A program made the translations under genes and the position numbers. Under the pieces are notes generated by a model. That model did not search any database. It had not been told where the DNA came from and saw nothing but the letters and a program-made list of their open reading frames with translations. Positions 327 through 57,127 of a DNA stretch of 64,000 bases are shown piece by piece. The stretch is from Candidatus Kerfeldbacteria bacterium (lineage in GTDB: Bacteria > Patescibacteriota > Patescibacteriia > UBA10025 > JAHIVO01): assembly GCA_047946875.1 (NCBI GenBank), contig CP181398.1, forward strand, positions 207,154 to 271,153. Direction: 5' to 3'. Position 1 is the first letter of the stretch. Every line of letters starts with the position of its first letter.

Positions 327-887
327 ATGAATTTACCACGTTTCAACGAAGTTAGTTATGCTCATTTTATTACCACCAAGACTTTTGAGAATAAAAAAAT
401 ATTTAGTGATAAAAACTGTTGTGAAATTTTGGTAAGTGATATTGATTTTTATAGTGGTAAGTTAGGTTTTCAATTAATTGGATATTGTATTATGCCTGAT
501 CATCTTCATCTGATAATTTGGTGGGATGTTGAAGGAAATAATGATTTAAATATTTCAAAAGTGATGCATAGAATTAAAGGATTGTCTGCTCAAAATTTAT
601 CACGTTATTTATTGGGTAGTCGAGGCGTTTCTGCCTCGACAGAAAGCCAAGGCACAAAGGCCTTGTCTACCCTTAGCAAAAAACACGTTATGAAAATATG
701 GCAACCGTCATTTTATGACTTTAATATTTATTCTGACAATAAACTGAACGAAAAATTGAATTATATTCATTATAATCCAGTGCGAGCTGGATTATGTGCA
801 GAGCCTGAGGATTGGATATGGTCATCATATAGTTATTATAAATTTGGAAAACAAGGAAAGATAAATATTAACAATATTACTAAATAA
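327..887 (+). CDS. REP-associated tyrosine transposase (RAYT; IS200-like Y1 HUH transposase)
   Basis: HUH motif IMPDHLHLII. C-terminal catalytic Tyr region YIHYNPVRAGL…W.WSS typical of TnpA_REP/Y1_Tnp. Contains an unusual in-frame GC-rich insert at nt 601-680 (see findings). Confidence 0.75.
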   Translation: MNLPRFNEVSYAHFITTKTFENKKIFSDKNCCEILVSDIDFYSGKLGFQLIGYCIMPDHLHLIIWWDVEGNNDLNISKVMHRIKGLSAQNLSRYLLGSRGVSASTESQGTKALSTLSKKHVMKIWQPSFYDFNIYSDNKLNEKLNYIHYNPVRAGLCAEPEDWIWSSYSYYKFGKQGKININNITK

Positions 888-7512: not shown

Positions 7513-7564
7513 AATGACGCTTTAAAGCGTCATCCTGAGGTCATAATAATAACCGAAGGACCTC
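7513..7564. repeat. REP-like hairpin element (AAATGACGC…GCGTCATCCTGAGGTC…GACCTC), a family member
   Basis: Inverted repeats gacgctttaaagcgtc and gaggtc/gacctc. A near-identical copy lies in opposite orientation at 24716-24771. Confidence 0.6.
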
Positions 7565-7578
7565 AATTGTTAATTTAT

Positions 7579-8016
7579 TTAGAATATATAATAAGAGAGA
7601 GCACCTATTGCAAATCCAATTATACCTCCTATTAAAACTTGTAAAGGAGTGTGTTGTAGTTTAGTAGAAACAGGATTTAAACCTTCATTAGCAAGTTCTG
7701 GGTGGTTATCAACTATCATTTTTAGTACTTTACTATTTTCATCTACAAAACCACGAAATTTCATGGCATCGACAATAATTATTGCTGAAAAAATAATTGA
7801 AATTCCGAATGCAATAGAATCTACTCCAGCATAATAACCCACTAATGTAGTTAGAGATGTAACTGTTGCAGTATGTGATGAGGGCATCCCACCGTAAACA
7901 GACAATATTCCTTTAAGATTAAAATTACCCTTAATGCCATCGGTCGTAAGTTTGATTGTTTGTACTACGAGTATAGTAATAATGGCGGTAAGTACTATTT
8001 GTATGGTAATATTCAT
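7579..8016 (-). CDS. DUF212 / divergent PAP2 family membrane protein (acid phosphatase/vanadium haloperoxidase-related)
   Basis: Conserved YGGMPSSHTATV motif of the YuiD/DUF212 family. 4 TM. Confidence 0.6.
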   Translation of the reverse strand: MNITIQIVLTAIITILVVQTIKLTTDGIKGNFNLKGILSVYGGMPSSHTATVTSLTTLVGYYAGVDSIAFGISIIFSAIIIVDAMKFRGFVDENSKVLKMIVDNHPELANEGLNPVSTKLQHTPLQVLIGGIIGFAIGALSYYIF

Positions 8017-8024
8017 AATATACT

Positions 8025-8840
8025 ATGGATTATTTATATTCGACAATTTTAGGATTGATTCAAGGTTTGACTGAGGTGTTTCCGGTGTCTAGTTCTGGAC
8101 ACTTGGTGATTGCCCATGACTTATTAAACTTTGATTTTGTTAGCGATTTAAGTTTTGATGTTGCTTTGCATTTAGGTACACTTTTAGCTCTAGTTGTTTA
8201 TTTTTATAAGGATATTAATAAATATATCGTATCATTCTTTGGTAGTTTTGCCAATTGGGATTTGAAAAATAACTTTGATCAACGGATGGCTTGGTACATA
8301 TTAGTTAGTACTATACCAGCTGGTATAGCTGGCTTTTTTATGGCAGATATTGCAGAAGAATTATTAAGGAATTTATGGTTGGTCGCATCAATGTTAATAA
8401 TATTTGGAATATTTTTTATTGTTTTTGAAAAGATATTTAAAAAAGACAAAGAGTTAGATCAATTAAAATGGTTTGGCGCTATTCATATTGGCGTCGCTCA
8501 GGCCATAGCCTTAATTCCCGGTGTTTCTAGATCAGGTATAACAATAATTACAGGTTTAGCGCAGGGCTTGAAGAGGGAAGCAGCAGCAAGATTTTCTTTT
8601 TTATTATCTATTCCAATAGTGTTCGGAGCAGGTATGAAAAAAATGTATGACGTTAGTCAAACGGGCCTAGAAAATGATCAATGGATTATACTTGGGGTAG
8701 GGTTTGTTGTTTCAGCTGTGGTTGGTTATTTAGCAATCAGATTCTTATTAAAATTCTTACAAAAAAATCCTTTAAATATTTTTGCTTATTATCGTTTTGT
8801 ATTAGCTGGTGTGATTATTATATATTTATTAGTTAGGTAG
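8025..8840 (+). CDS. uppP: Undecaprenyl-diphosphatase (UppP/BacA)
   Basis: N-terminal …GLIQGLTEVFPVSSSGHL… and the C-terminal PGVSRSG motif of the BacA family. Confidence 0.9.
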   Translation: MDYLYSTILGLIQGLTEVFPVSSSGHLVIAHDLLNFDFVSDLSFDVALHLGTLLALVVYFYKDINKYIVSFFGSFANWDLKNNFDQRMAWYILVSTIPAGIAGFFMADIAEELLRNLWLVASMLIIFGIFFIVFEKIFKKDKELDQLKWFGAIHIGVAQAIALIPGVSRSGITIITGLAQGLKREAAARFSFLLSIPIVFGAGMKKMYDVSQTGLENDQWIILGVGFVVSAVVGYLAIRFLLKFLQKNPLNIFAYYRFVLAGVIIIYLLVR

Positions 8841-9030: not shown

Positions 9031-9166
9031 CTTGTCATTCTGAGGAGCCTGAGAGAAACGAAGGGGACGTGAGAATCTCCACGCAAAGCGTGGTAGATAG
9101 CTTTATTAATAGTAAATACACCTGACCAGAGGTCAGGAGATGCTTCGACTTCGCTCAGCATGACAA
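9031..9166. repeat. MITE/REP-like GC-rich element with imperfect TIRs (gtcattctgagg … gctcagcatgac)
   Basis: Its TIRs and inner palindromes (ccacgcaaagcgtgg; cctgaccagaggtcagg) are shared with the element at 52951-53022. Confidence 0.6.
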
Positions 9167-9262: not shown

Positions 9263-10396
9263 CTAGAATGGTAATTCGTTACCTGGATTATCTTCAGTCG
9301 GTGTACTAGATCTACCTTTATAATAACCAGTCGTTAGGATACCTATTACTACTAGTATCCATGGCCACCAGAGATATGTCTGAGCACAGAAATATCGGTA
9401 GTAAACTATTAAGCCAATGAAAGTTATTAGCAAAGGGAATATCCACCAGTTTGGTGATTTATGCTTTTTCTCGTAGATAAAATAGATTGCAAGAATCAAA
9501 GCGTAAATAATTAGTAGTGTAAATGTTAAACCGTGAGCGATGTTAATACATTCTTCATCTTCTTCTTTATTATTACCTTCTTCGTTATTATTTTCTTCTT
9601 CTTTATTACTTTCAAGAGTCATAAGTTCAGCTTTTTCAACATCTTCATTTAATGTTTCTTCGTTGATATCTTCATTTGTTTCAGTCAAATCTTCTTCTGT
9701 ATCTACGAGTTCTTCTTCATCTTCAGTTGGGATAATAGGGTCTGCTAGAAGAGTAATTGTATTTTTATGAACAATAATGCCAGGGGACATTTCAATATCT
9801 CCAATACTTGCTGTGACATATCCGATGCCTGCGCTATTTGCGGCTACCAAACCGCTAGTATTTACAGAAGTATAAACTCCGTCGGTAATCCATTTGAATT
9901 CAGCGTCAGTAACTGTATTTCCTGCTGCATCAAAAGCAACGGCAGTAAATTGTTGAGTACCTCCAATATTAATATTAGTAGGTTTATTGTTAGGAGTTAC
10001 GACTATTGAAGTTGCGATTCCTGCTTTTACATTAATTTGCCATACTTGATTGTCGTAGCCATTATTATCATCATTAGCTTCTACGACTATATTGTACATA
10101 CCAACAATATTTGGTTCCCAAGTTATAGTATTATCTACTAAAGTCACTCCTGTAGGTGAGTTTGTTAACTTGAAGCTAATATCATCATCATCACTATCTG
10201 TAGCTGTTAGCGAATACTGATAAGTTTGATCGGTCGTCACGACAAGTGTTGGATTTGATGTGATTACTGGTGCATGATTAATAGTTTGTGCACTAGTAAT
10301 ATTTGGTGTAAAAACCACCAATAAAATTGCAGTTAGACAGATGCTACTGTATATAAATGCCCTCCGCAAGGCTTTTTGCGTCATATTTGTGTACAT
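9263..10396 (-). CDS. cell-surface protein with Big_2 (bacterial Ig-like) domains, acidic linker and C-terminal TM anchor
   Basis: Signal peptide. Big_2-like SVNTSGLVAANSAGIGYVTASIGD. E/D/N-rich low-complexity linker. 3 C-terminal TM helices. Confidence 0.6.
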   Translation of the reverse strand: MYTNMTQKALRRAFIYSSICLTAILLVVFTPNITSAQTINHAPVITSNPTLVVTTDQTYQYSLTATDSDDDDISFKLTNSPTGVTLVDNTITWEPNIVGMYNIVVEANDDNNGYDNQVWQINVKAGIATSIVVTPNNKPTNINIGGTQQFTAVAFDAAGNTVTDAEFKWITDGVYTSVNTSGLVAANSAGIGYVTASIGDIEMSPGIIVHKNTITLLADPIIPTEDEEELVDTEEDLTETNEDINEETLNEDVEKAELMTLESNKEEENNNEEGNNKEEDEECINIAHGLTFTLLIIYALILAIYFIYEKKHKSPNWWIFPLLITFIGLIVYYRYFCAQTYLWWPWILVVIGILTTGYYKGRSSTPTEDNPGNELPF

Positions 10397-10498
10397 TGAT
10401 TAATTAGTTTAAAAATTATATAATTCCTTCATTTTATTAAAAAAAACTGATTTAGTCAAGGGTATTTAACTAAAAACCCCCCTAAATAATAGGAGGGC

Positions 10499-10507
10499 TG
10501 TGGATAA
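10499..10507 (-). promoter_or_regulatory. perfect DnaA-box-like 9-mer TTATCCACA (minus strand), about 100 bp upstream of the 9263-10396 gene
   Basis: Exact match to the DnaA box consensus. One of four co-oriented copies in promoter regions (see findings). Confidence 0.3.
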
Positions 10508-10599
10508 CTCAAATAAAATTATTTAAAAAATTAATGATTTGGTTTGTCCTGAATCTGCCTATCAACAGATAGGCGTAGTGAAGGAATCACGTCCGAAAT

Positions 10600-11568
10600 T
10601 TATATAATTTGGATTACTTTTGGCACTTGTTCTAAGAAGTGAGGGTGTAATAATATTGCAGTACCAGCGATTACTATTACAACAATTGACTGAATTATCA
10701 TATGAGGATGTTGAACTTTGATTTCTACAGCAATATTTATTAGTAGCATGATAACTAAGAACAATATTAATATTAAATAAAATTGCTGAGAATATTCAAT
10801 TAGCGTTGCTACAAATCCTTGAGATTTTTCACCTGCTAATTCTGCTGTACCTAATACATTAGCTGATAAGTCTGACTCAGGTATATTATTTTGTACTGGT
10901 AAAGTTTCTTCAGAGGCAAGCGGTTTTTCTTCTACTAGTGGTGGCTCTTGGTTTGTATTAGTAGGAGTTGTAGAAAGTGGAGTAGTAACTACTTCAACTT
11001 CAGTTTCACTAGATTGTTCAGGAGGAGCGACTACCACAATTGGTAATTCTATTGACCCACCGTCAATCCAGCCATTATTCTCGGAAACTAGGCCAAATGA
11101 TTCTTCAAATGTTCCTGCTTCACTTGGTGCTTCTAATATAAATTCAAATCTTCCTACTTCACCTGATCTAACAACTGATTGTGTTAGGATGGCAGGTCTA
11201 TAGTATTCAACCCAAGTTTCACTTTCAAATTCACTTTCTCGAGCAGTTGGGTTTGTTACATTTAGGGCGACAAAGTAATTACCACTGTTTGTCCAAGTAG
11301 CTGTACCGGTATTTTTGAAATCAACCCAGAAAGATATTTCTTCTAATGTTTTAATACCTAGGTCATTAGCACTTTGGTCAGTAAGTTCTGCCTTATAGTA
11401 AACAGGTTCTGGAGTAGGGGTTGGAGGGTTCAGGGACTGGTGTAGGTGTAGGTTCTGGAGTAGGGGTTGGTGCTGGATCAGGGACTGGTGTAGGTGTAGG
11501 TTCTGGAGTAGGGGTTGGAGTTGGTTCAGGGACAACAACTGGAGCAGGAGCTTCATAAGGAGTACCAA
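10600..11568 (-). CDS. C-terminal portion of a frameshifted CAP-domain surface protein (extracytoplasmic domain plus TM anchor)
   Basis: The frame switches within the PT-linker tandem repeat at 11393-11568. The N-terminal 50 aa of this ORF are an out-of-frame translation of the PT repeat. Confidence 0.5.
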   Translation of the reverse strand: MVLLMKLLLQLLSLNQLQPLLQNLHLHQSLIQHQPLLQNLHLHQSLNPPTPTPEPVYYKAELTDQSANDLGIKTLEEISFWVDFKNTGTATWTNSGNYFVALNVTNPTARESEFESETWVEYYRPAILTQSVVRSGEVGRFEFILEAPSEAGTFEESFGLVSENNGWIDGGSIELPIVVVAPPEQSSETEVEVVTTPLSTTPTNTNQEPPLVEEKPLASEETLPVQNNIPESDLSANVLGTAELAGEKSQGFVATLIEYSQQFYLILILFLVIMLLINIAVEIKVQHPHMIIQSIVVIVIAGTAILLHPHFLEQVPKVIQII

Positions 11569-12226
11569 AATGCTCTACTAGGATCATTGTTTCATGACCT
11601 TCTAATACACCTTCAATGACAGCTATTCCCATCTGAGTATATTTAGTATTCATTATATTTTTTTCATGGGTTGGACTATTCATAAAGGCGACATGAACAG
11701 AGGAAGCGCTGGAAAAATCCATTGCTAAATTTTCACCTGCAGCTGTGTAAGCATAGCCAGCTTCTTTAATAAAATACCACGGCTTTGTTCCGTCAGGAGC
11801 TGTGTGAGCAAAATAATCATTCTCAACCATATGCTGTGCTTTTAATAAAGCAGCTTGGTTTAATTGTGGACTAATAGTTAATGCAGCAACGCCAGCTTCT
11901 GCTCTAGATTGATTGGTTAGACTGAGTATTTCTGCTTCAGTGATTGTGGCGAATTGGCCAGGGGATGGGTATGATAAAAATAAAAAAGTAGTAACAAAAA
12001 CTTTTATACCAATAATGAAGTAAGTATAAATTCGTAGAGCAAGAGGTCTTAAAGCGTGAGGTTTATGACTATTACCTTTGTGAGGTATCAAAAAATGCTT
12101 AGCGTGTTTAGGAACACGTTTAGCATGATGAATCACCTTATGGCGAAGCTTCATTTTATTCTTTTGTTCTTCTTTTTTCTCTGTCATATAACTATAAGTT
12201 ATTATATCAGATACTAATTTCAACAA
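11393..12226 (-). CDS. CAP/SCP/PR-1 (YkwD-like) domain secreted protein, N-terminal portion with PT-rich linker
   Basis: N-terminal TM/signal. CAP motifs …LNQAALLKAQHMVENDYFAHT…GENLA…HVAFMNSPTHEKNIM…YTQMGIAV. Then (PEPTPTP)n. Confidence 0.65.
   Translation of the reverse strand: MLKLVSDIITYSYMTEKKEEQKNKMKLRHKVIHHAKRVPKHAKHFLIPHKGNSHKPHALRPLALRIYTYFIIGIKVFVTTFLFLSYPSPGQFATITEAEILSLTNQSRAEAGVAALTISPQLNQAALLKAQHMVENDYFAHTAPDGTKPWYFIKEAGYAYTAAGENLAMDFSSASSVHVAFMNSPTHEKNIMNTKYTQMGIAVIEGVLEGHETMILVEHFGTPYEAPAPVVVPEPTPTPTPEPTPTPVPDPAPTPTPEPTPTPVPEPSNPYSRTCLL
11400..11540. repeat. 54-bp tandem repeat (about 2.5 copies) encoding a PEPTPTP linker
   Basis: Direct repeat ggttctggagtaggggttgg…tcagggactggtgtaggtgta seen twice in a row. 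Coincides with the frame change. Confidence 0.7.
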
Positions 12227-12396
12227 TCAAGTCTACCATTCTTATTCCGTTTTGTCAAGGGGGTAGGCAGACAGGTTATTTTGGTATTTTGACTACCCGA
12301 TCGCACCTTAGAAAAGGCGCTCTCAATCAAATTTTAATGGATATTCTATTGCTTATAAGAGCATGCTTTTAGCGTGCGACCCCAAAAAACAATAAC

Positions 12397-12428
12397 CAAA
12401 AACAGCCTCTTAGCAGAGGCTGTTTTTG
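12397..12428 (-). terminator. intrinsic terminator hairpin (cagcctct-tagc-agaggctg) flanked by A/T runs
   Basis: 8-bp GC-rich stem followed by a U-run on the minus-strand transcript, immediately after the 12445 stop. Confidence 0.65.
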
Positions 12429-12444
12429 TATTTAAAGTATTCTA

Positions 12445-13911
12445 TTACTTTTTAGCTACAGTTAGTTTCATTGCTACCCCGGAAAAGATTAATAATAATC
12501 CTGCTCCGATAAGATAAGCAAATGTCATAGTTGAGCCACCTGTTACTGGTAGTTCTTCACCAAGTACTACAACTGCTCTTAATTCTACATCAGCAGTATC
12601 AAATACATTAGCTACTCCTTGTGCCCATACTTCGGCAGTATTCCTATAAATACCTGGCTCATTGTCTTTCAAGATAATAACATCGTAAGTAGTAGTTACT
12701 GAGTTACCAGGAGCGATAATGCCTAGCATCCAAGTATGAGTAGGAGCTAATGTGTCTGTGAATTGCATACCAGCAGCAATATGATCTATTAATACTGTAT
12801 CAACTGCCATAGAGTCTCCATCGTTAGTTATTACGATAGTGTAGCTAATAGTATCACCTGGGTTAGCAAATTCAACGCTAGCAGTTTTATCTATAGTTAA
12901 TGAAGGTAATGCTTCTTCACCTAGGACAATAGGGATTAATACTTCTTCTGCTACTGCGGTTGTAGCATCATCTTTGACAGCGGTAAGTCCTACAGCTTCG
13001 ACAGATGCAATATTTGTATAGTCTCTTGTTACAGCATCATCTTCAATGATTACTACGTATTCAATGGTTTTTGATTTATCACGAAGAATTGTGTCTAATT
13101 TCCATTGTTTTGCAGTGGTGCCATCTAGTTGATAGATTAAGCCTTCTGGCAATATATCATCTACTTTTACATCAAAGGCTGTTTGGTCGCCAGTATTTTT
13201 AACAACGATTGTATAATTTAAAGTATCACCAGGGTTTGCTTCTGTAACATCTACACTTTTTTCAATAGTTAAGTCTGGACCATCAGGAATAGAACAAGTA
13301 TCAAGGCTAGCAAAAGAAATAGCTAACTGACCCCAGTCATCACATCCGCCCCAAATTTCATCTGTGGCACGAATTTCAATAGTAAGTACACCTTTCATAC
13401 TTTCATCAAGTGGGAACTTTGCGGTATACCATTCTTCTGTAGAGTCATTTTTATCTGTATACGAATCAATAGGCACTTTATTTATATAAACTTCAAAGCT
13501 GTCATCATTGCTTAAACCGTCAAGATGTCTAACGGTAAGTAATTTAGCACCGTTATCACCAGCGTCTAGAGTAAAGAAGGCTGATTTATCATTATTTTTA
13601 TCACATGTTTTTTCGATCACCATTCTGAAGTTTCCGTCATCACCATATCCATAACTAGAACCGCCACTATGGATTATAGGATCACTCCATCCATATCCTG
13701 ATAAAATATGCCCAATCTCACTGGTAGTATCACCGATGTTTACAGAATCGGTGTTTTGATGATAATCACCACCATTATCACAGGTTAGTGTTGATATGGA
13801 TTGTGCATTTGTTGCTTGTGGTGCCAATAAAATGGCACCAAAAAGTCCAAAAATAGCCACCATTATGACCAAGGTGGATTTCATTTTGAACCTATTCATT
13901 ACATTTTTCAT
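12445..13911 (-). CDS. secreted DUF11-repeat protein with C-terminal LPXTG cell-wall sorting signal
   Basis: Signal peptide. Three DUF11-type repeats (…TIEKSVDVTEANPGDTLNYTIVVKNTGD…). C-terminus LPVTGG, a hydrophobic stretch, then KK. Confidence 0.7.
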   Translation of the reverse strand: MKNVMNRFKMKSTLVIMVAIFGLFGAILLAPQATNAQSISTLTCDNGGDYHQNTDSVNIGDTTSEIGHILSGYGWSDPIIHSGGSSYGYGDDGNFRMVIEKTCDKNNDKSAFFTLDAGDNGAKLLTVRHLDGLSNDDSFEVYINKVPIDSYTDKNDSTEEWYTAKFPLDESMKGVLTIEIRATDEIWGGCDDWGQLAISFASLDTCSIPDGPDLTIEKSVDVTEANPGDTLNYTIVVKNTGDQTAFDVKVDDILPEGLIYQLDGTTAKQWKLDTILRDKSKTIEYVVIIEDDAVTRDYTNIASVEAVGLTAVKDDATTAVAEEVLIPIVLGEEALPSLTIDKTASVEFANPGDTISYTIVITNDGDSMAVDTVLIDHIAAGMQFTDTLAPTHTWMLGIIAPGNSVTTTYDVIILKDNEPGIYRNTAEVWAQGVANVFDTADVELRAVVVLGEELPVTGGSTMTFAYLIGAGLLLIFSGVAMKLTVAKK

Positions 13912-17644: not shown

Positions 17645-20600
17645 TTATTCTTTTTTACTTACAGTTAACTTCAGTGTATATGCAGAGAAGAGTAAGATTA
17701 GAGCTGCTGCAAATATATATAGGAATTGCATAGCTGAACCACCAGTTGTAGGTAATTCTTCACCTAATACTATAGGGGCTCTTACTTCTACATTTGCGAA
17801 GTCTGTTACATTCCCATGATTATCGGCCCAAGCAACTGCAAGGTTTTCATAATCACCAGGTAAGATTGTACCATTGGAGATTGCTGTGTAAGTGATAATT
17901 TTTGATTCACCGTGTAAGATATCTCCTAGGTTAAATGTTTTTGTAACTGTACCGTCTATGAATGTGAAACCAGCAGGTAGTAAGTCTTGTAATTTTACAT
18001 TGATAGCTACAGCTTCAGCTTGAGCATCACCAATGTTAGTAATAACAACAGTGTAAACTACACTATCGCCAGGATTGATAAATTGTTTATCAACTGTTTT
18101 CTCTATTACTAAGACTGGGTCTGCTTCTTCAGATTTTACAGTAGGTATTCTAACTTCTACTGTGGCGATATCATCAATACTTGGATGATTATCAGACCAG
18201 GTAATAGCTAGATTATCATAGAATCCTGCATCTACTTCTGAACCTATTAATACATTATAAGTAGTAGTGATAGAATCACCAACTATCATATCGCCAAGTG
18301 ACCATTCACGAGTTGCTAGACCAGTGTCTTCATAAACGAATCCATCTGGTAAAAGGTCAGAAAGTATAGTGTTGATAGAAGTATCAGTACCGACGTTAGT
18401 AACTACTACAGTGTAGGTTACTAAGTCTCCTCTGTTAACATAAGTAGTTGGTTCTACAGTTTTAACTATTGTTAAGACAGGAGCTGACTTTACAGTTACT
18501 TTTGATTCGTCCTCTAAATATTGTGGATCTGAATTATCAGCAGCAATTTTTGCGATGTTAATAATTTCAGTTCCGTTTGCTACAGGTACATTTAATGTAG
18601 CTGTATAAGTAACGAATCCAGAAGCGTTAGGTTGTTGTGTTCCGAAATCCCAAGTAATAGTTCTAGTTGTATCATCCCATTTTGGAGGAGTGACAGTAGG
18701 AATTGAAGAAGTAATAGATGCTACGTCTAGATTTAATTCAGCAGGGATAATGTCAGTTAAGACAACGTTAGTAGCAATAGAATTTCCAGCTACACTCCAG
18801 TCAATGTGATAAGCAACTGTCTCAGTAGTTTCTAAGATACCGTCGCCACCTTGAGCTACTTCTTGATCATTATATTTATCTAGAGTTAAAGTAATCTTTT
18901 CAGCATTACCGAATTCGAAGTATTCTTCCTGGCTATTGTTATCATAACCTGACATTATGACGATTGGACCGAATACACCGCCTACAGGGGCATATTGATA
19001 CCAACCAGTTTGCATTGTTTCAGATAACCAGTAAGTGCCGGCAACTATTCCGGTGAATTCAAACATTCCGAATTCATTGGTAAGTGTTTGGGCAATGATT
19101 GTTCCAGGTTGACCAGTATTGTCTTCGTGTAGGTTAATTTCCCAACCTTGTAAACCAGTCTCTTGGCCATCCCATTGTCTGTTATTATTAATATCTTCAA
19201 ATTTGTAACCTGTAATTATTCCAAGTTGGAAATTACCGAAGTTGTTGTCTTGACTGTTAGTACCACTTACAACAGTAATTGTTGCTGGGTCAGTAGTCAT
19301 TTGTGTCCAACCTGTTTTTAAGGTTTCAGTTACATTGTAGTCACCAGCTTGTAGGCCAGTGAATGAATAGTAACCGTTTGCGTCAGTAACATCAGATGAA
19401 CCGTTATCAAGATTGATAGTCCAACCAGCTAAAGCAAGTTCTCCAGTATCCCAAGTTTTATTTCCATTTACATCTTCGAATTTATATCCAGAGATTTTAC
19501 CTTTTTTATAATTACCAAAGTCAACATCAGTGATATCTGAACCACTTGTAATTGTAATTGGTGCTGGGTTAGAGGTAGTTCTTATCCAAGCAGTGTTTGA
19601 CTCATCTTCAGTTACTGTCCAGTCACCAGCAGTTAAACCAGTGAATTCATAGGAACCGTCGGTAAGTGTTTGTGTGCTTGTTGCCCAGTTACCGGAGATG
19701 TAGATTGTCCAACCAGCAATAGCAGGTTCTCCAGCATCCCATACTCCGTCACCGTTTAGGTCATTAAATTTATGTCCTGAGATTTTTGTATCTTTGAAAT
19801 TACCGAAATCAATATCATCAACATCTTGGCCACTTACCGCAATAATATCTGCTGGATTTGTAGTTGTTTGTGTCCATCCAGTTTGTTGTACTTCACGCAC
19901 ACGGTATGTACCTGGAGCAAGATCATCAAAACTATATCTTCCAACACCGTTGGTTACAGTGATATCAAGAACATTATTTTGTGCATCACGTAATTCAATC
20001 GTCCATCCTACTAGACCAGTCTCGCCACTATCTTTTGTACCATTGCCGTTTATATCTTCAAATTTTTGTCCTGCGATATAAATATTATCAAAGTTACCGA
20101 AGTTATAACCACTAACATCAGTTCCTGAAGTAACGTCTATTGGTCCTAGAATTTGTCCCTGGCCTGGGAATGTTTGTGTCCAACCGCCCTGTTGTACTTC
20201 ATTGAGGTAGTAGGTTCCTTTTTCTAGACCAGTGAATTCATATCTACCGTTTGAGTCAGTTATATCAGTATCAAGTACCGTGGACATATCATCAGCAAGT
20301 AATTGGATAGTCCATCCTAAGAGTGTAGGTTCTCCTGTATTCCAAATTCCGTCACCATTAAGATCGTTCCATTTTTGTCCGGTGATTTCACCGAGTTTGA
20401 AATTTCCAAACCATACACTTTCTAAATCTCCATTAGTAATTGTAACTGTTTTGGTCAATGTTCCATTTCCCGGTTCTGTGTTTGTCCAACCCGTTTGTTG
20501 GGTTTCAACTACATCATATGAACCAGTTGGAAGATTTCTGATTATAAGGTATGGAGAATCTTGTGGATCTTGACCGGTTGTTCCGGATGCGACTACTGTG

Positions 20601-23600
20601 CTTCCATCTTTTACTTCAAAATACCACCCTGGCATATAAGGTTCATTGGAATCTTTGTCTCCGTCACCATTAAGGTCATTATATTTTTTAATGCGAAGAT
20701 CACCGGTATCAAGTGCATTACAAAGTGTTATTTCAGTAGTGTTGTTTTTACTTACATTAATGTTTATTGGTAGAGTAATTCCTTCAAGATTAGTACAGTT
20801 GAAATTAGCACCTGGAGTGTTTGAGTACCATCCAACAAAGTGATAGTTAGCTACATCACCGTCATTTTCTGTTACATCATATGTGCCTGTAACAACTGTT
20901 TCATTACTGCCCATATCTCGGGCTGGTGTTTCAGAATCAATACCCCAGACAAATCCTAGAGCATTGGCTTCTGTATTTCCACCATCAAAGGTGCCATCAC
21001 CGTTAGTGTCTACTTCTTTATTTACTTTAATATCACCAGTGTCTCTTGTATTACAAAGTGTTATTTCAGTAGTGTCATTTTTAGAAACATTTATATTGGC
21101 TGGTAGTGAATGATAAGTAGTTGTTTCGCAAGTAAAATCTGATCCATTAACATACCATCCAACAAAGTGATAGTTAGCTACATCACCGTCATTTTCTGTT
21201 ACATCATATGTGCCTGTAACAACTGTTTTATTGCTGCCCATTGCACGAGCTGGAGTTTCAGCATTGATTCCCCAAACAAAGCCGAGGTTATTTGCTTCTG
21301 TGTTACCGCTTTCAAATGTACCATCGCCATTGGTATCAATTTCTTTGTTTACTTTAATATCGCCAGTGTCTCTGGTGTTTGTAAATGTGCAATCTACACC
21401 AGATTTGGTTAATTGAATTGTTTTTGTTTCAACAGCTCCGTAGCTGACGCCGTCACATGTTAAATCGGTAACATGATAGTTTGTCATCATATCTTCTGAA
21501 ATTGTATATGAACCTGTTGTTAGAGTTCTTCCTTGGCCTGTTGATATATTCTGTTCACCATTTGCAATATCCCATCTCCATGTATCTACATTATATTCAT
21601 CTACTATTCCGTTACCATCAGTGTCTAAGTTTTTATGGACAATAATTTCACCAGTATCACGATTGTTTCCAAACCATACACTTTTTAAACCTCCATTAGT
21701 AATTGTAACTGTTTTGGTCAATGTTCCATTTCCCGGTTCTGTGTTTGTCCAACCTGTTTGTTGGGTTTCAACTACATCGTATGAACCAGTTGGAAGATTT
21801 CTTATGATAAGGTATGGAGAATCTTGTGGGTCTTGACCGGTTGTTCCTGATGCGACTACTGTGCTTCCATCTTTTACTTCAAAATACCAGCCAGTCATGT
21901 AGTAATCATTACCATTTATGATTCCGTCACCATTAAGATCGTTATATTTTTTGATGCGAAGATCACCAACATTTCTTGTATTAGTGAAAGTACACACAAC
22001 TCCTTGATTAGTAAGGTTTACTTGTACTGACTCATTTGCACCGTAGCTTACACCATTACAAGTAACATCAGTTACATGGTAACCGGTTTTCATATCTTCT
22101 GAAAGAGTATATGTATCAGTTGCAAGTGTTCGTGTTGAACCAGTTGCAATATTCTGTTCGCCGTTTTGGATATCCCAATTCCAGTTAGTTGCACCAAATA
22201 CATCTACTTGTCCATCGCCGTTTGTATCAACATTTTTATAAACTGTTAAATCTCCAGTATCACGAACGTTAGTAAATGTACAGATAGTCGTTCTTCCGTT
22301 AAAAACTTCTGCATTATTGATAGTAGAGCCAGTTCCGTTCCACACTTGAGGAACATCACCGATCAATACACATTCCCAACCACTTACTGTGTATCCTTGA
22401 GGGGAAGTTTCTGTAACTGTGTAAATGTCTGTAGGTATTGTACCTACGTTATATTCTCCGTTTGTTCCTGTCCATCCGTTATCATTGAATTCAGAACCAT
22501 CAACCGTTACATAAACATCTAGCGGAGCGCCTGCCTGATCAACTTTACGAATAATTAAGTCACCAGTATTACGTGTATTTGTAATTGTACATTCTGCAGT
22601 ATTACCTGTAGTTACTGTTACTGAATTGCAAGTTGAATTAGTCAATGAATATCCAGGTATAATTTCTTCTTCAACGGTATAATCGTTAGGTGTTAAATCA
22701 TTAAACATTACATAGTTTGAAGTTGTAGCAGGATAAATGTATGGATTACCTGATCCAACAATTCTAAATCCAAAGTCTTCTGGTAAGGCTGTGCCACCAT
22801 TTACAACTTTGATTACTTTTAAATTACCGTTACAATCCATTTCAACATGGGTATTAACAATATTGCTGTAAATGTCTCCAGTTTCATTACTCCAGATCCA
22901 AGCTTGGTTTGGAATATCAAAATCATCACAGTCTAGCGGCTCAGTTATTACAGCTTGAAATATTACAGCGCCGGATTCTCCAGGGCTTACTACGTGAGCA
23001 TTTGCTACAGGATTTGAGCCATTGAAGTTTCCTTCAAAAGTAATTCCTTGGCCATCAACATCACCGGATATTAATTCTGTATGAATACCGTTGTATGTTA
23101 AACGAGGGTCAAGATTATCAAACAATTGAACTCCACCGCCTGTACAAATTGCTTCGCCGGTATTTATATATTCCAATGTATATTCCAATGTATCACCAAC
23201 TGATGCAGTTGTTTTATCAACAGTTTTTGTAATAACTAAATTACATACACCAGGAACATTTCCGAAATTCACATCTGTTTCATTTTGACCAGCCAAGAGA
23301 GTTACATTGTGCACATTATTAGTTGGATATGTTTGAATCCAATTAGTTTGTTGTGTTTCTGAAACAGTGTAGTTGCCTGGATTTAAATTTACAAAAGAAT
23401 ATAAACCATTTGAATCTGTAGTTGTAGAAGCAGTAGCATCACCACCAAGATTTATTGTCCAGTTAGCTAGTCCTGGCTCAGTTGCCTGCTGCCAAATACC
23501 ATCATTATTAGAATCTTTCCATTTATATCCAGAAATATTTCCTTCTTGTCGGTCATTAGTATAAGTACAAGTAACATTTTCACCTTCTTCAAGGTTAATT

Positions 23601-24655: not shown

Positions 24656-24715
24656 ATGTTTTATTTATTCTTTATATAATTAATATATATATAATAAGTT
24701 GTTAATAAGGTAAGT

Positions 24716-24771
24716 GAGGTCCTTCAGCCATATTGGCTTCAGGATGACGCTTTGCGTCATTTTTCTAGGTC
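24716..24771. repeat. REP-like hairpin element, inverted copy of the element at 7513-7564
   Basis: Its reverse complement gacctagaaaaatgacgcaaagcgtcatcctgaag…aaggacctc aligns with 7513-7564. Confidence 0.6.
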
Positions 24772-26768: not shown

Positions 26769-26847
26769 ATTGTCATCGCGAGAAGTGTAGCGACGAAGCG
26801 ATCTAAGATTGCCACGTCACTCATTTCATTCGTTCCTCGCAATGAGT
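26769..26847. repeat. REP/MITE-like element, GTCATCGCGAG subfamily (TIRs tgtcatcgcgag / cctcgcaatgag)
   Basis: GC-rich in an AT-rich background. Shares halves with the composite element at 56905-57035. Confidence 0.6.
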
Positions 26848-26878
26848 AAAAATATTTAATAATATTAAGATATAATTT

Positions 26879-29714: not shown

Positions 29715-29857
29715 CCATAACATAAATAAATACCACAGACAGTAGGTGGCGAGATCTTGAAAAAAGTTCAGGACAAGCATAAAACCTGCCGAGGTGTAAT
29801 AATAAATTTTTATTATCTGTGGTGTCTACACAGATTTTTTTATTAAACAATAATAAT

Positions 29858-34303: not shown

Positions 34304-35508
34304 TAAGTTACAGGGTTACTTGGTTTTAGTTGGTACGCTGATTTAAATCCAAATTTATTACTCAGAATGTCTATAGCATTCTGTATTTTTTTAATTTTGA
34401 AAAATGATTTTTCAAAAATACTTTGAATTGGTTCATAACTTAAGAGGTCATGAATAGTAGCTGATACAGAAATTATTTTAGTGCTCAATGGTAAAATTTC
34501 ATTTAGTAATTGATTTGCCAAAGGAGCTAAGTCATTATAATTATTTAAAGGCATATTAAATTGTTTCCTTTTTGTTTTGATACTATGTTTATTAAACGTG
34601 ATTTTAATAGAAAGAACGTTCCCAGTTTTCTTCTGAGATTTGAGAGAATTACAAATTATTTTTATTTGATCAAGCAAAGAATCAAATATAAGATTTTGGT
34701 CGTTGGTAGCAAATTCAAAGCTATTTGATCTAGTGATTGATTTTTTTATTCCAACTGAATACACTTCACGGTCATCGAGAGCATTTGCCATTTTCCAAAT
34801 TTGTAATCCATTATTACCGAATGTTTGAACAAGCTGTGCTTGAGGCATATTTGCTAGATGTCCAATGGTATGTATATTGAGAGATTTTAGAGCAATTTCT
34901 GTCCTTGGGCCTATGGCTGGTAAATATTTTATAGGTAATCCTGAGATGAATTCTTTTTCTTGTCCCCAGGGTACATAAGTTATTGCATTTGGTTTTTGTG
35001 ACTGGCAAGCGATCCGAGCACATATTTTGTTGCTAGCTATTCCTACAGAAGAAGTTATTTCAAGTTCTGAATATAATTTATTTCTAATATCATTTGCAGC
35101 TTGTTCTGGTGATATCCATTTTTCTTCAAAGCCTGATATATCAATATACGCCTCATCTAGTGAGATTGGTTCAATTTTTTTACTATATTGTGAAATTATT
35201 TTGAAAAATTGTTGAGAAAATAATTCATATTGTTCAAATGAGCCGGCAATATATTTAGCTTGTGGGGCTATCTCATATGCTTTTGATAAAGTCATTATTT
35301 TATTAATACCTAAATTTCTTGCTTCATAACTGGAGCAAGCCACAAGACTATTGGGTTTGATGTTATTACTTATTATGACTGGTTGGTTTCGTAGTTCTGG
35401 ATGTAGAGCTTTTTCTACTGAAGTAAAAAAAGAATCTAGACTTATATATAGTATTGTTTTTCCGGCATAGCCGGATCCGCCTTTGGAGGAGAATTTATTT
35501 TTTTTCAT
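34300..35508 (-). CDS. dinB: DNA polymerase IV (Y-family, DinB)
   Basis: …ILYISLDSFFTSVE…, SLDEAYIDIS and a little-finger domain. The N-terminal ~17 aa, encoded by a GC-rich repeat, are probably not native, so the start is uncertain. Confidence 0.8.
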   Translation of the reverse strand: MKKNKFSSKGGSGYAGKTILYISLDSFFTSVEKALHPELRNQPVIISNNIKPNSLVACSSYEARNLGINKIMTLSKAYEIAPQAKYIAGSFEQYELFSQQFFKIISQYSKKIEPISLDEAYIDISGFEEKWISPEQAANDIRNKLYSELEITSSVGIASNKICARIACQSQKPNAITYVPWGQEKEFISGLPIKYLPAIGPRTEIALKSLNIHTIGHLANMPQAQLVQTFGNNGLQIWKMANALDDREVYSVGIKKSITRSNSFEFATNDQNLIFDSLLDQIKIICNSLKSQKKTGNVLSIKITFNKHSIKTKRKQFNMPLNNYNDLAPLANQLLNEILPLSTKIISVSATIHDLLSYEPIQSIFEKSFFKIKKIQNAIDILSNKFGFKSAYQLKPSNPVTY

Positions 35509-35722
35509 ATTAGATTTATAAGTTTCCGGCGGGGCCGGATCCGGCTTTGCCTGAATTAGTTAGTTATTTTAATTTATAAAGAGGGAAGTGATGAGCCGAA
35601 TAAAAACCGAAAATAAATAACAAATTTATTTTCGTCCTGAAAGATTTTGAAGGACCTAAGTTTTTTGGCTCACTAAACAATATATGTCTTTGAGTAAATT
35701 ATTTTATTTGGTTAAAAAAGGT

Positions 35723-52950: not shown

Positions 52951-53022
52951 TGTCTTCCTGAGCTTTGCGAAGGAACTCCTGACCGTAGGTCAGGGGACTC
53001 TTCACTCCGTTCAGAGTGACAG
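52951..53022. repeat. MITE/REP-like element (tgtcttcctgagc … cctgaccgtaggtcagg … gttcagagtgaca)
   Basis: Same family as 9031-9166 (shared central palindrome and TIRs). Confidence 0.6.
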
Positions 53023-56911: not shown

Positions 56912-57035
56912 GATCGCTTCATTTTATTCGCGATGACAGAACTTTTTTATTCTTGTCATTGCGAGGAATGGAATGACGAAGCAATCTTAGCGTCTAAATT
57001 CAGGATGACCATCCTCCTGTCATTTCGGACTTGCT
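56905..57035. repeat. composite REP/MITE-like repeat cluster (gatcgcttc…tcgcgatgacag; cttgtcattgcgaggaatggaatgacgaagcaatcttagcg; caggatgaccatcctcctgtcat)
   Basis: Segments match both halves of the 26769-26847 element in reverse orientation. Confidence 0.55.
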
Positions 57036-57127
57036 TGTCCGCCTCTGGTGGGATCCAGAATCTCTATTGACTATTAGGCTTATTTTTGGTAAACAGAACA
57101 AAAGAAAACAAAAACATTGGAGGTTAC

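Follow-up and report, generated by a model that had tools for sequence, protein, structure and literature searches.

An old REP-like doublet nested in frame within a RAYT gene of a Patescibacterium

Introduction

REP-associated tyrosine transposases (RAYTs) behave like housekeeping genes and their role in the host is debated; to our knowledge, their only known substrates are repetitive extragenic palindromes (REPs). Can such a gene carry a REP-like element within its own reading frame, and on what does selection act if it does? This question is raised by the open reading frame (ORF) at 327-887 of a 64-kb stretch of a Candidatus Kerfeldbacteria genome (here called the window; all coordinates are window positions, position 1 being its first letter). 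An earlier note on this DNA had described two GC-rich hairpins in frame inside the gene and read them as a miniature insertion into the transposase gene, in a genome with an active or recently active REP/RAYT system. We find that the hairpins belong to one 59-nt element and our favoured explanation, to which we give a probability of roughly 60%, is that this element is a REP-type doublet nested in the RAYT ORF, old, selected as nucleic acid, and the putative cis substrate or binding site of its own enzyme.

Results

The two hairpins lie exactly where the earlier note had placed them: hairpin 1 is GTCGAGGC/GTTTCT/GCCTCGAC at 619-640 and hairpin 2 is CAAGGC/ACAAAG/GCCTTG at 648-665. What had been missed is that GGGTAG and CTACCC bracket them and that they are inverted copies of one unit. 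Unit 1 reads GGGTAG-TCGAGGC-GTTTCT-GCCTCGA on the plus strand and unit 2 reads GGGTAG-A-CAAGGC-CTTTGT-GCCTTG on the minus strand; the reverse complement of unit 2 resembles unit 1 (AGGC-xTTTxT-GCCT), and this comparison identifies the hairpins as diverged inverted copies. The element is made up as follows:

614 to 672, unstranded: whole REP-like doublet (foot, palindrome, linker, inverted palindrome, foot), 59 nt, in frame, overlapping codons 96-116 and giving residues G97-T115
614 to 619, plus strand: 5′ foot GGGTAG of unit 1, containing GTAG, read xxG GGT AGx (Gly-Ser/Arg)
620 to 639, plus strand: palindrome of unit 1, stem 620-626 (TCGAGGC) with 633-639 (GCCTCGA), loop 627-632 (GTTTCT); an eighth pair is possible (G619 with C640)
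640 to 647, unstranded: linker between the units, 8 nt, CAGAAAGC, of varying length and sequence among homologues
648 to 665, minus strand: palindrome of unit 2, the inverted copy, plus-strand stem 648-653 (CAAGGC) with 660-665 (GCCTTG), loop 654-659
667 to 672, minus strand: foot of unit 2, CTACCC on the plus strand and GGGTAG on the minus strand, pairing with 614-619 in the folded single strand

A GTAG foot followed by a short palindrome, arranged in inverted pairs, is the build of the GTAG-REPs, BIMEs and REPINs that TnpA_REP reads (PMC8266576; PMC3733652), and 614-672 has this REPIN/BIME-like build of two inverted, GTAG-tagged, REP-like units, each a GGGTAG foot with a perfect 7-bp palindrome around a 6-nt loop. 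The segment has the shape of nucleic acid and not of protein, and foot, palindrome and inverted pair bear out the earlier note's view of it as REP-like.

The element also differs from its gene in composition and folding. Its GC content is 58% vs 27% for the remainder of the RAYT gene, and 60-nt windows give 0.50-0.53 at the element vs ~0.2-0.3 in neighbouring windows. A 71-nt stretch with the doublet beats its shuffles in folding on both strands (z = -4.3 and -5.0) and takes a Y shape. The match to the NCBIfam profile NF047646 covers 163 protein residues for 144 profile positions, that is ~19 extra residues, in line with the 19 extra in-frame, GC-rich codons that had been noted in this AT-rich gene. 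At 300-900, Rfam 15 gave only chance-level matches (E 0.26-9, far below gathering scores). The Y shape, together with a GAAA that follows hairpin 1, suggested a hammerhead-like three-way junction; on visual inspection, the sequence joining the outer helix to hairpin 1 lacks a CUGANGA core, and this reading was rejected.

Judged from its sequence, ORF 327-887 is a RAYT, a domesticated transposase gene of an ultra-small bacterium, which agrees with the earlier assignment. It matches NF047646 ('REP-associated tyrosine transposase') at 111.9 bits (cutoff 80) and Pfam Y1_Tnp, and the IS200 model NF033573 reaches only 19.7 bits, below its cutoff of 55. The best PDB relative by profile is 4ER8, E. 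coli TnpA_REP bound to a REP hairpin (E 8e-17), and the best fold match of the AlphaFold2 (AF2) model is 4er8_A (Foldseek, E 3e-8, TM 0.63/0.70). The landmarks of the protein are:

327 to 887, plus strand: RAYT, a TnpA_REP-type Y1 (HUH) transposase ORF of 186 aa with NF047646 and 4ER8 matches
501 to 509, plus strand: codons of the HUH motif H59-L60-H61 (context MPDHLHL), H59 and H61 at least 90% conserved in the homologue alignment
699 to 704, plus strand: conserved W125-Q126 at the start of strand β4 and the end of the variable loop, W125 invariant and Q126 at least 90% conserved
762 to 779, plus strand: tyrosine motif Y146-I-H-Y-N150-P151, the Y---NP signature of class 2 TnpA_Y1 (defined in PMC6006769, Table 1), N150 invariant, Y146 and P151 at least 90% conserved

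Relative to E. coli TnpA_REP (4ER8), ~35 profile positions face 5 residues between helix αC and strand β4. The AF2 model (mean predicted local distance difference test (pLDDT) score 86.6) runs from helix 76-96 (αC) through a low-confidence coil to strand β4, residues 101-120 being coil at pLDDT ~46-53. The translated doublet is therefore predicted to be a disordered surface loop, a location that the earlier note had proposed to check. According to Quentin et al. (PMC6006769), the αC-β4 loop lies next to the region by which the REP hairpin is read.

A protein search returned 117 homologues, mostly from metagenome-assembled genomes of Patescibacteria and some from Dehalococcoidia. Extra residues in the αC-β4 loop are found in ~80 homologues (Patescibacteria, Dehalococcoidia, Cloacimonadota), in which the HUH-to-W spacer measures 59-84 residues vs ~35 in distant relatives without the insert. 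A search of genome contigs gave mostly distant insert-less RAYTs, with 6 close relatives among the matches listed; the distant ones served as an outgroup, and their HUH-to-W spacer, measured from four residues further upstream, is 44-50 aa among the matches listed. At the DNA level, the full doublet is present in 16 of 20 genes and a single or 'double-foot' unit in 3 more (19/20 in total). The pattern common to the 16 is an [AG]GGT[AG]G foot, a perfect stem of 7-8 bp, a loop of 4-6 nt, a linker, the inverted unit and a CTACCC-type foot; single units occur in either orientation (loci L006 and L007). The inserts give peptides that look unrelated to one another (GSRGVSAST..SQGTKALST; GRQGFYALP..RGIKASAT; GRRKPSLSPY..SEGSRLP; GRRGPLTSP..GQGTRAT), and REP class tracks protein similarity. 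Syntenic orthologues share the element at the same codon position with 86-98% nucleotide identity, and the number of units differs between close homologues (P0005, P0010, P0058, P0063, P0086). Taken together, the sequences indicate that the doublet is old and inherited within this RAYT clade, neither a recent nor a private insertion.

For the 33 distinct units that we compared, positions were simply counted over 26 nt from the start of each foot; no alignment was fitted. Standard pairs fill 99.1% of stem cells, and 7 of 7 stem pairs have changed on both sides (92 cells), a level not attained by any of 500 shuffles; with the partner displaced by 1-3 columns, pairing falls to 27-49%. In the foot, T4 and G6 never change and G1-G3 and A5 show at least 90% conservation. 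TnpA_REP recognises GTAG-REPs by such a combination, a constant tag beside stems that covary (PMC8266576). The 5′ foot lies in one codon frame in 17 of the 18 genes that have a unit 1, and since it is read xxG-GGT-AGx, every peptide class opens with Gly-Ser/Arg. The frame of the 3′ foot varies, being NCT-ACC in some classes and CTA-CCN in others (frame 1 here, frame 0 in class-B homologues), and a motif retained in different reading frames is therefore retained as nucleic acid.

Conservation between orthologues follows the same line. Nucleotide identity is 0.63-0.98 in the element, 0.52-0.82 in the 5′ coding part with the catalytic HUH motif and 0.38-0.62 at third codon positions; for the window against locus L083 the values are 0.93, 0.74 and 0.56. 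No other stretch of the RAYT gene is as well conserved in nucleotide sequence. Within one gene both units share their loop or apex sequence (CCTT, CCTC, ATCC, TTTTAT and others) and clades differ in it, so the pair evolves in concert, and with the protein. A comparison of G-T with A-C mispairs as a pointer to the strand of action found 4 non-Watson-Crick cells in 231, too few to point to a strand.

Do copies exist outside the gene? The DNA of this genome that was searched is the window plus 10 kb upstream (74 kb, ~6% of the ~1.3-Mb genome). With up to 3 mismatches allowed, neither hairpin has a second copy in the 64-kb window, and the 74 kb contain no GC-rich hairpin with a GGT[AG]G foot other than the two intragenic units. 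Around 19 relatives (~340 kb), family-type units outside ORFs occur only in L083, L005 and L006, the other matches being at chance level. These extra units sit 61-86 nt upstream of the RAYT start codon; the one in L083 (1576-1636) is a whole second doublet, 20 nt before the ATG, and is preceded by the apparent decayed end of another RAYT 5′ half. A metagenome scan with the pattern GGTAGTCGAGGC-N4-8-GCCTCGA gave, among 80 loci listed, 79 irrelevant chance matches in high-GC coding DNA and 1 RAYT homologue (L150). The many dispersed extragenic copies that define a REP family were thus seen neither in the 74 kb nor around the relatives, and copies flanking the cognate RAYT are missing from the window and present in relatives, 5′ in L083, L005 and L006 and 3′ in L215 and L216. 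Because no dispersed copies were seen, we call the element REP-like for its build and do not count membership of a REP family as demonstrated.

Loci L215 and L216 represent a sister RAYT group (~31% identity) that carries four GGGTAG units in the other variable loop, β3-αC, and four further units directly downstream of the RAYT inside an adjacent 109-aa 'ORF', which may be nothing but translated REPs:

L215, 3127 to 4177: sister-group RAYT locus with units
L216, 10001 to 11051: sister-group RAYT locus with units

Units in the other loop and downstream mean that insertions into RAYT genes happened more than once.

Locus L084 holds three RAYT genes or fragments within 3 kb (9638-9994, 10001-10597 and 11855-12455). 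The first has only the 5′ half of a RAYT of REP class A and breaks off ~5 nt past its doublet; 17 nt past this doublet stands the ATG of a full-length class-B RAYT, and in a second copy of class B a TAG stop follows the doublet after six codons.

Across these loci, units cluster on RAYT genes, their number shifts over time and rearrangement breakpoints coincide with them, which speaks for the DNA form as a present or past substrate.

These data do not bear out the history proposed in the earlier note. A transposase that 'has been hit' recently does not agree with an insert common to ~80 homologues across phyla and 86-98% identical between syntenic orthologues, nor does an active system with a dispersed family agree with the lack of any GTAG-foot hairpin outside the gene, in the 74 kb, or of further hairpin copies in the window. 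Homologues encoding the segment with ordinary AT-rich codons, which the earlier note had named as evidence against its reading, did not turn up: GC content was measured in 15 genes, and in every one it is 57-71% in the element and 27-50% in the remainder. The dispersed GC-rich hairpin family that had been invoked exists in so far as this AT-rich genome has GC-rich intergenic repeats, but they form a different family. This is probably the family that was meant. Its members lie at 7516-7565, 9033-9165, 24715-24765, 26775-26850, 52951-53021 and 56954-57070, with inverted ends TGTCATYCTGAG...CTCAGRATGACA and inner hairpins such as CCTGACC-N3-GGTCAGG at 9121 and 52978; they have neither a GTAG foot nor an Rfam match. 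We rejected them as the REPs of this RAYT because their termini differ and the GTAG foot is absent. A further intergenic motif, TCCGGC-N3-GCCGGATCCG, occurs in two copies 64 nt apart (35461-35475 and 35525-35539).

The RAYT gene abuts both neighbours and therefore has no intergenic flanks: an MgsA/RarA-type ATPase gene (8-325 is its C-terminus) ends at 325, two positions before the RAYT start at 327, and an EamA transporter gene starts at 888, directly after the RAYT end at 887. It is the only RAYT copy in the 74 kb. The gene order MgsA ... RAYT ... EamA-NUDIX is found again in L083, L084 and L210. ATPases acting on replication forks or single-stranded DNA (RarA, UvrD, ComM) repeatedly adjoin RAYTs of the clade or sit ~1-3 kb away, and a functional link is possible. 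Besides the MgsA/RarA-type gene of the window, the genes concerned are:

L086, 7947 to 9983: UvrD
L212, 10599 to 12122, and L213, 8484 to 9995: ComM/Mg-chelatase-like
L084, 7419 to 8708, and L210, 7812 to 9098: MgsA

In L088, a second Y1 gene of NHVH / YIANNP type (subclass 2.4-like, 7687-8265) stands 1.7 kb upstream of the RAYT homologue, so that one locus holds two RAYT types. The first HUH histidine is replaced by tyrosine in L213 (P0072, DYVH) and in P0022 (DYLH), both otherwise intact homologues. A tie between this loss and REP decay was considered and is unsupported, as L213 keeps both hairpins, with one foot CTACTC.

Elsewhere in the window, the sole curated RNA family, and the only Rfam match at gathering threshold, is a ribosomal protein L10 leader (RF00557, 52.7 bits, 29715-29849, plus strand); no tRNA or tmRNA gene was found in the 64 kb. 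Tandem repeats of ~280-330 nt at 19263-22613 (minus-strand coding) are probably repeated domains of a large surface protein, and 11398-11552 is a short GTAGG/GTTGG-rich coding repeat of Gly/Ser/Thr/Val type. Both are unrelated to the RAYT doublet.

Discussion

Our data on the anatomy, conservation, covariation and loop position of the doublet, on the lack of nearby dispersed copies and on the tie of the units to RAYT genes describe a substrate-like element in the ORF of the enzyme itself, conserved above the flanking coding DNA and apparently with no dispersed population, and therefore point to a cis interaction between enzyme and gene. In our explanation the protein tolerates the doublet as a disordered loop, and selection acts on the nucleic acid, fixing the foot and keeping the stems paired by compensatory changes. 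From these data we infer RAYT binding, cleavage and a regulatory consequence, which could proceed as follows. When the gene becomes single-stranded during replication or transcription, one unit per strand could present its GTAG foot and hairpin in a RAYT-readable orientation. The encoded RAYT might then bind, and perhaps nick and rejoin, its own gene. Enzyme and substrate would be inseparable by recombination or transfer, the doublet being a built-in 'home copy' of the REP; in addition or instead, it may be a cis site limiting the RAYT's own expression.

Several points weigh against this explanation. REPs are by definition repeated and extragenic and there is no other copy in the 74 kb, so the REP link rests on architecture and on the host gene; that DNA is ~6% of the genome, and the DNA sample of homologues is 20 genes chosen from the best protein matches. 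A conserved CT cleavage dinucleotide beside the feet is not evident in the homologue sequences, and binding and cleavage by the RAYT are proposed from sequence only. The hairpins are also present in the mRNA, and a DNA role is not separable from an RNA role in these data.

This last point leads to the main rival, in which the element acts as mRNA structure only: a Y-shaped, GC-rich fold, closed by a helix of the two feet, would slow ribosomes, serve as an RNase III/E site or stabilise the message, and lower transposase output. The sense strand does fold strongly, as does homologue RNA; the few departures in the outer helix are sense-strand G-T wobbles (GGGTGG/CTACCC in L003 and L212, GGGTAG/CTATCC in L150); the upstream copies at -61 to -86 could fall in a 5′ untranslated region; and many REPs have been argued to act as RNA (Di Nocera et al., PMC3733652). 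However, a closing helix should covary like the inner stems, and instead it is near-invariant across phyla and is exactly the RAYT tag. The element is also strand-symmetric, with one unit per strand, a symmetry that an RNA function does not require, and we add that single units exist in either orientation (L006, L007) and that Rfam has no match. Because the outer helix does not covary, equals the RAYT tag and belongs to a strand-symmetric element, we rank an RNA-only role lower and regard it as unlikely.

The history given in the earlier note, generalised to an active dispersed REP/REPIN population that recently inserted a copy or overwrites it by gene conversion, the copy being kept as it happened to be in frame, is improbable. 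It would account for the variation in unit number between close homologues, for the sister clade with four units in the other loop and four downstream, and for the in-frame REPs known in many genes (PMC3733652). It is hard to square with syntenic orthologues that hold the element at an identical codon position with 86-98% nucleotide identity, with a REP class that tracks protein similarity, with further copies that are absent from the 74 kb and, in the ~340 kb around relatives, lie only directly upstream of the gene, and with other GC-rich repeats in the window that differ in their ends and have no GTAG foot.

We hold it very improbable that the loop is selected as a peptide, for instance as a Gly/Arg/Ser-rich, DNA-contacting arm with incidental hairpins. 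The αC-β4 region lies near the site of REP-hairpin recognition (Quentin et al., PMC6006769), G, R, K and S abound in the inserts, and subclades have conserved peptide motifs downstream of the 3′ foot (YPxRRMSEQ, YxWxxRGxVHTP), yet the peptide is unconserved between classes, the reading frame of its 3′ half is not the same in all of them, the nucleotides are more alike than in the catalytic half, synonymous sites included, the stems covary perfectly and AF2 assigns the segment no structure. A functionless relic, an old in-frame insertion removable only by exact deletion, is equally far-fetched: a disordered loop would tolerate it and some lineages have one unit (L006, L007), but neutral DNA should diverge at least as much as third codon positions, and here the element is the most conserved stretch, with stems kept perfect by double substitutions. 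The peptide, relic and recent-hit explanations all fit the data poorly.

REPs inside the reading frame of tnpA_REP genes are known from subclass 2.4 (RAYT group 4), where the feature was called unique and goes with NH[IFV]H and YIxNNP motifs, the β3-αC loop, a highly variable insert and hosts among Cyanobacteria and Bacteroidetes (Quentin, Siguier, Chandler & Fichant 2018, BMC Genomics 19:475, PMC6006769). As in that subclass, the REPs described here lie inside the ORF in a peripheral loop, leave the frame unbroken and may flank the gene too, and the sister group of L215 and L216 even uses the same β3-αC loop. In contrast, the present clade has DHLH, WQ and YIHYNP motifs, uses the αC-β4 loop, is hosted by Patescibacteria, Dehalococcoidia and Cloacimonadota, and has a fixed doublet conserved across the clade as its insert; ORF 327-887 shows neither of the two subclass 2.4 motifs nor a β3-αC insert. 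The clade is outside subclass 2.4, yet it displays the same phenomenon, in lineages absent from that survey.

Comparison with other systems places the doublet more closely. It resembles REPIN/RAYT and REPtron/BIME systems (Bertels & Rainey 2011, PMC3116915; Ton-Hoang et al. 2012, PMC3333891; Corneloup et al. 2021, PMC8266576) in the single RAYT with GTAG-tagged palindromes as inverted pairs, in the short perfect palindromes of group 3 REPs, in foot and hairpin as recognition determinants and in the co-variation of REP type with RAYT type. Classical REPINs, however, are found outside genes, flank the RAYT gene and reach tens to hundreds of copies in a genome, whereas the pair described here is intra-ORF, in a gene without intergenic flanks, with no dispersed copies in the DNA searched. 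In-frame REP insertions, and the Rickettsia palindromic elements (RPEs) cited with them, are likewise dimers that add ~20-30 residues at tolerated protein positions, but they are abundant dispersed families in assorted genes, often of a single species (PMC3733652); the present doublet is in the gene of the cognate enzyme and conserved across phyla. The subterminal hairpins of IS200/IS605 insertion sequences (IS), with their 5′ guide tetranucleotides, are also read as a single-stranded DNA hairpin plus adjacent tetranucleotide by a Y1 HUH enzyme of the same fold. Unlike the doublet, the ends of an IS lie on both sides of the transposase gene and delimit a mobile unit with many identical copies, while the present RAYT has no element boundary around it and its synteny is conserved.

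In the literature, no RAYT-mentioning paper was among the top-ranked full-text matches that combined RAYT with Patescibacteria or the candidate phyla radiation (CPR). What is new here is a second RAYT lineage and a second loop with intragenic REPs, evidence for an ancient intragenic doublet under nucleotide constraint above that of the surrounding gene, and the apparent lack of a dispersed population alongside it. For annotation, the Gly/Arg/Ser/Thr-rich 'low-complexity' loops in many CPR 'transposase' proteins would be translated REPs, not protein motifs.

We tentatively raise, as a bolder version that we would not bet on, that the only REPs of this clade's RAYTs lie inside or touching their own gene, a 'REPtron in an ORF' under purifying selection across Patescibacteria, Dehalococcoidia and Cloacimonadota. 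If such a self-contained REPtron exists, the RAYT-REP interaction would be maintained for a cis function and not for the spread of REPs, candidate roles being regulation of the RAYT by itself or a transaction, linked to replication forks, that involves the neighbouring RarA-, UvrD- or ComM-type ATPases. The streamlined genomes of these bacteria would then offer a minimal system for the long-debated host function of domesticated RAYTs. The protein of 186 aa and the element of 59 nt in any event make up a small pair that is open to experiment.

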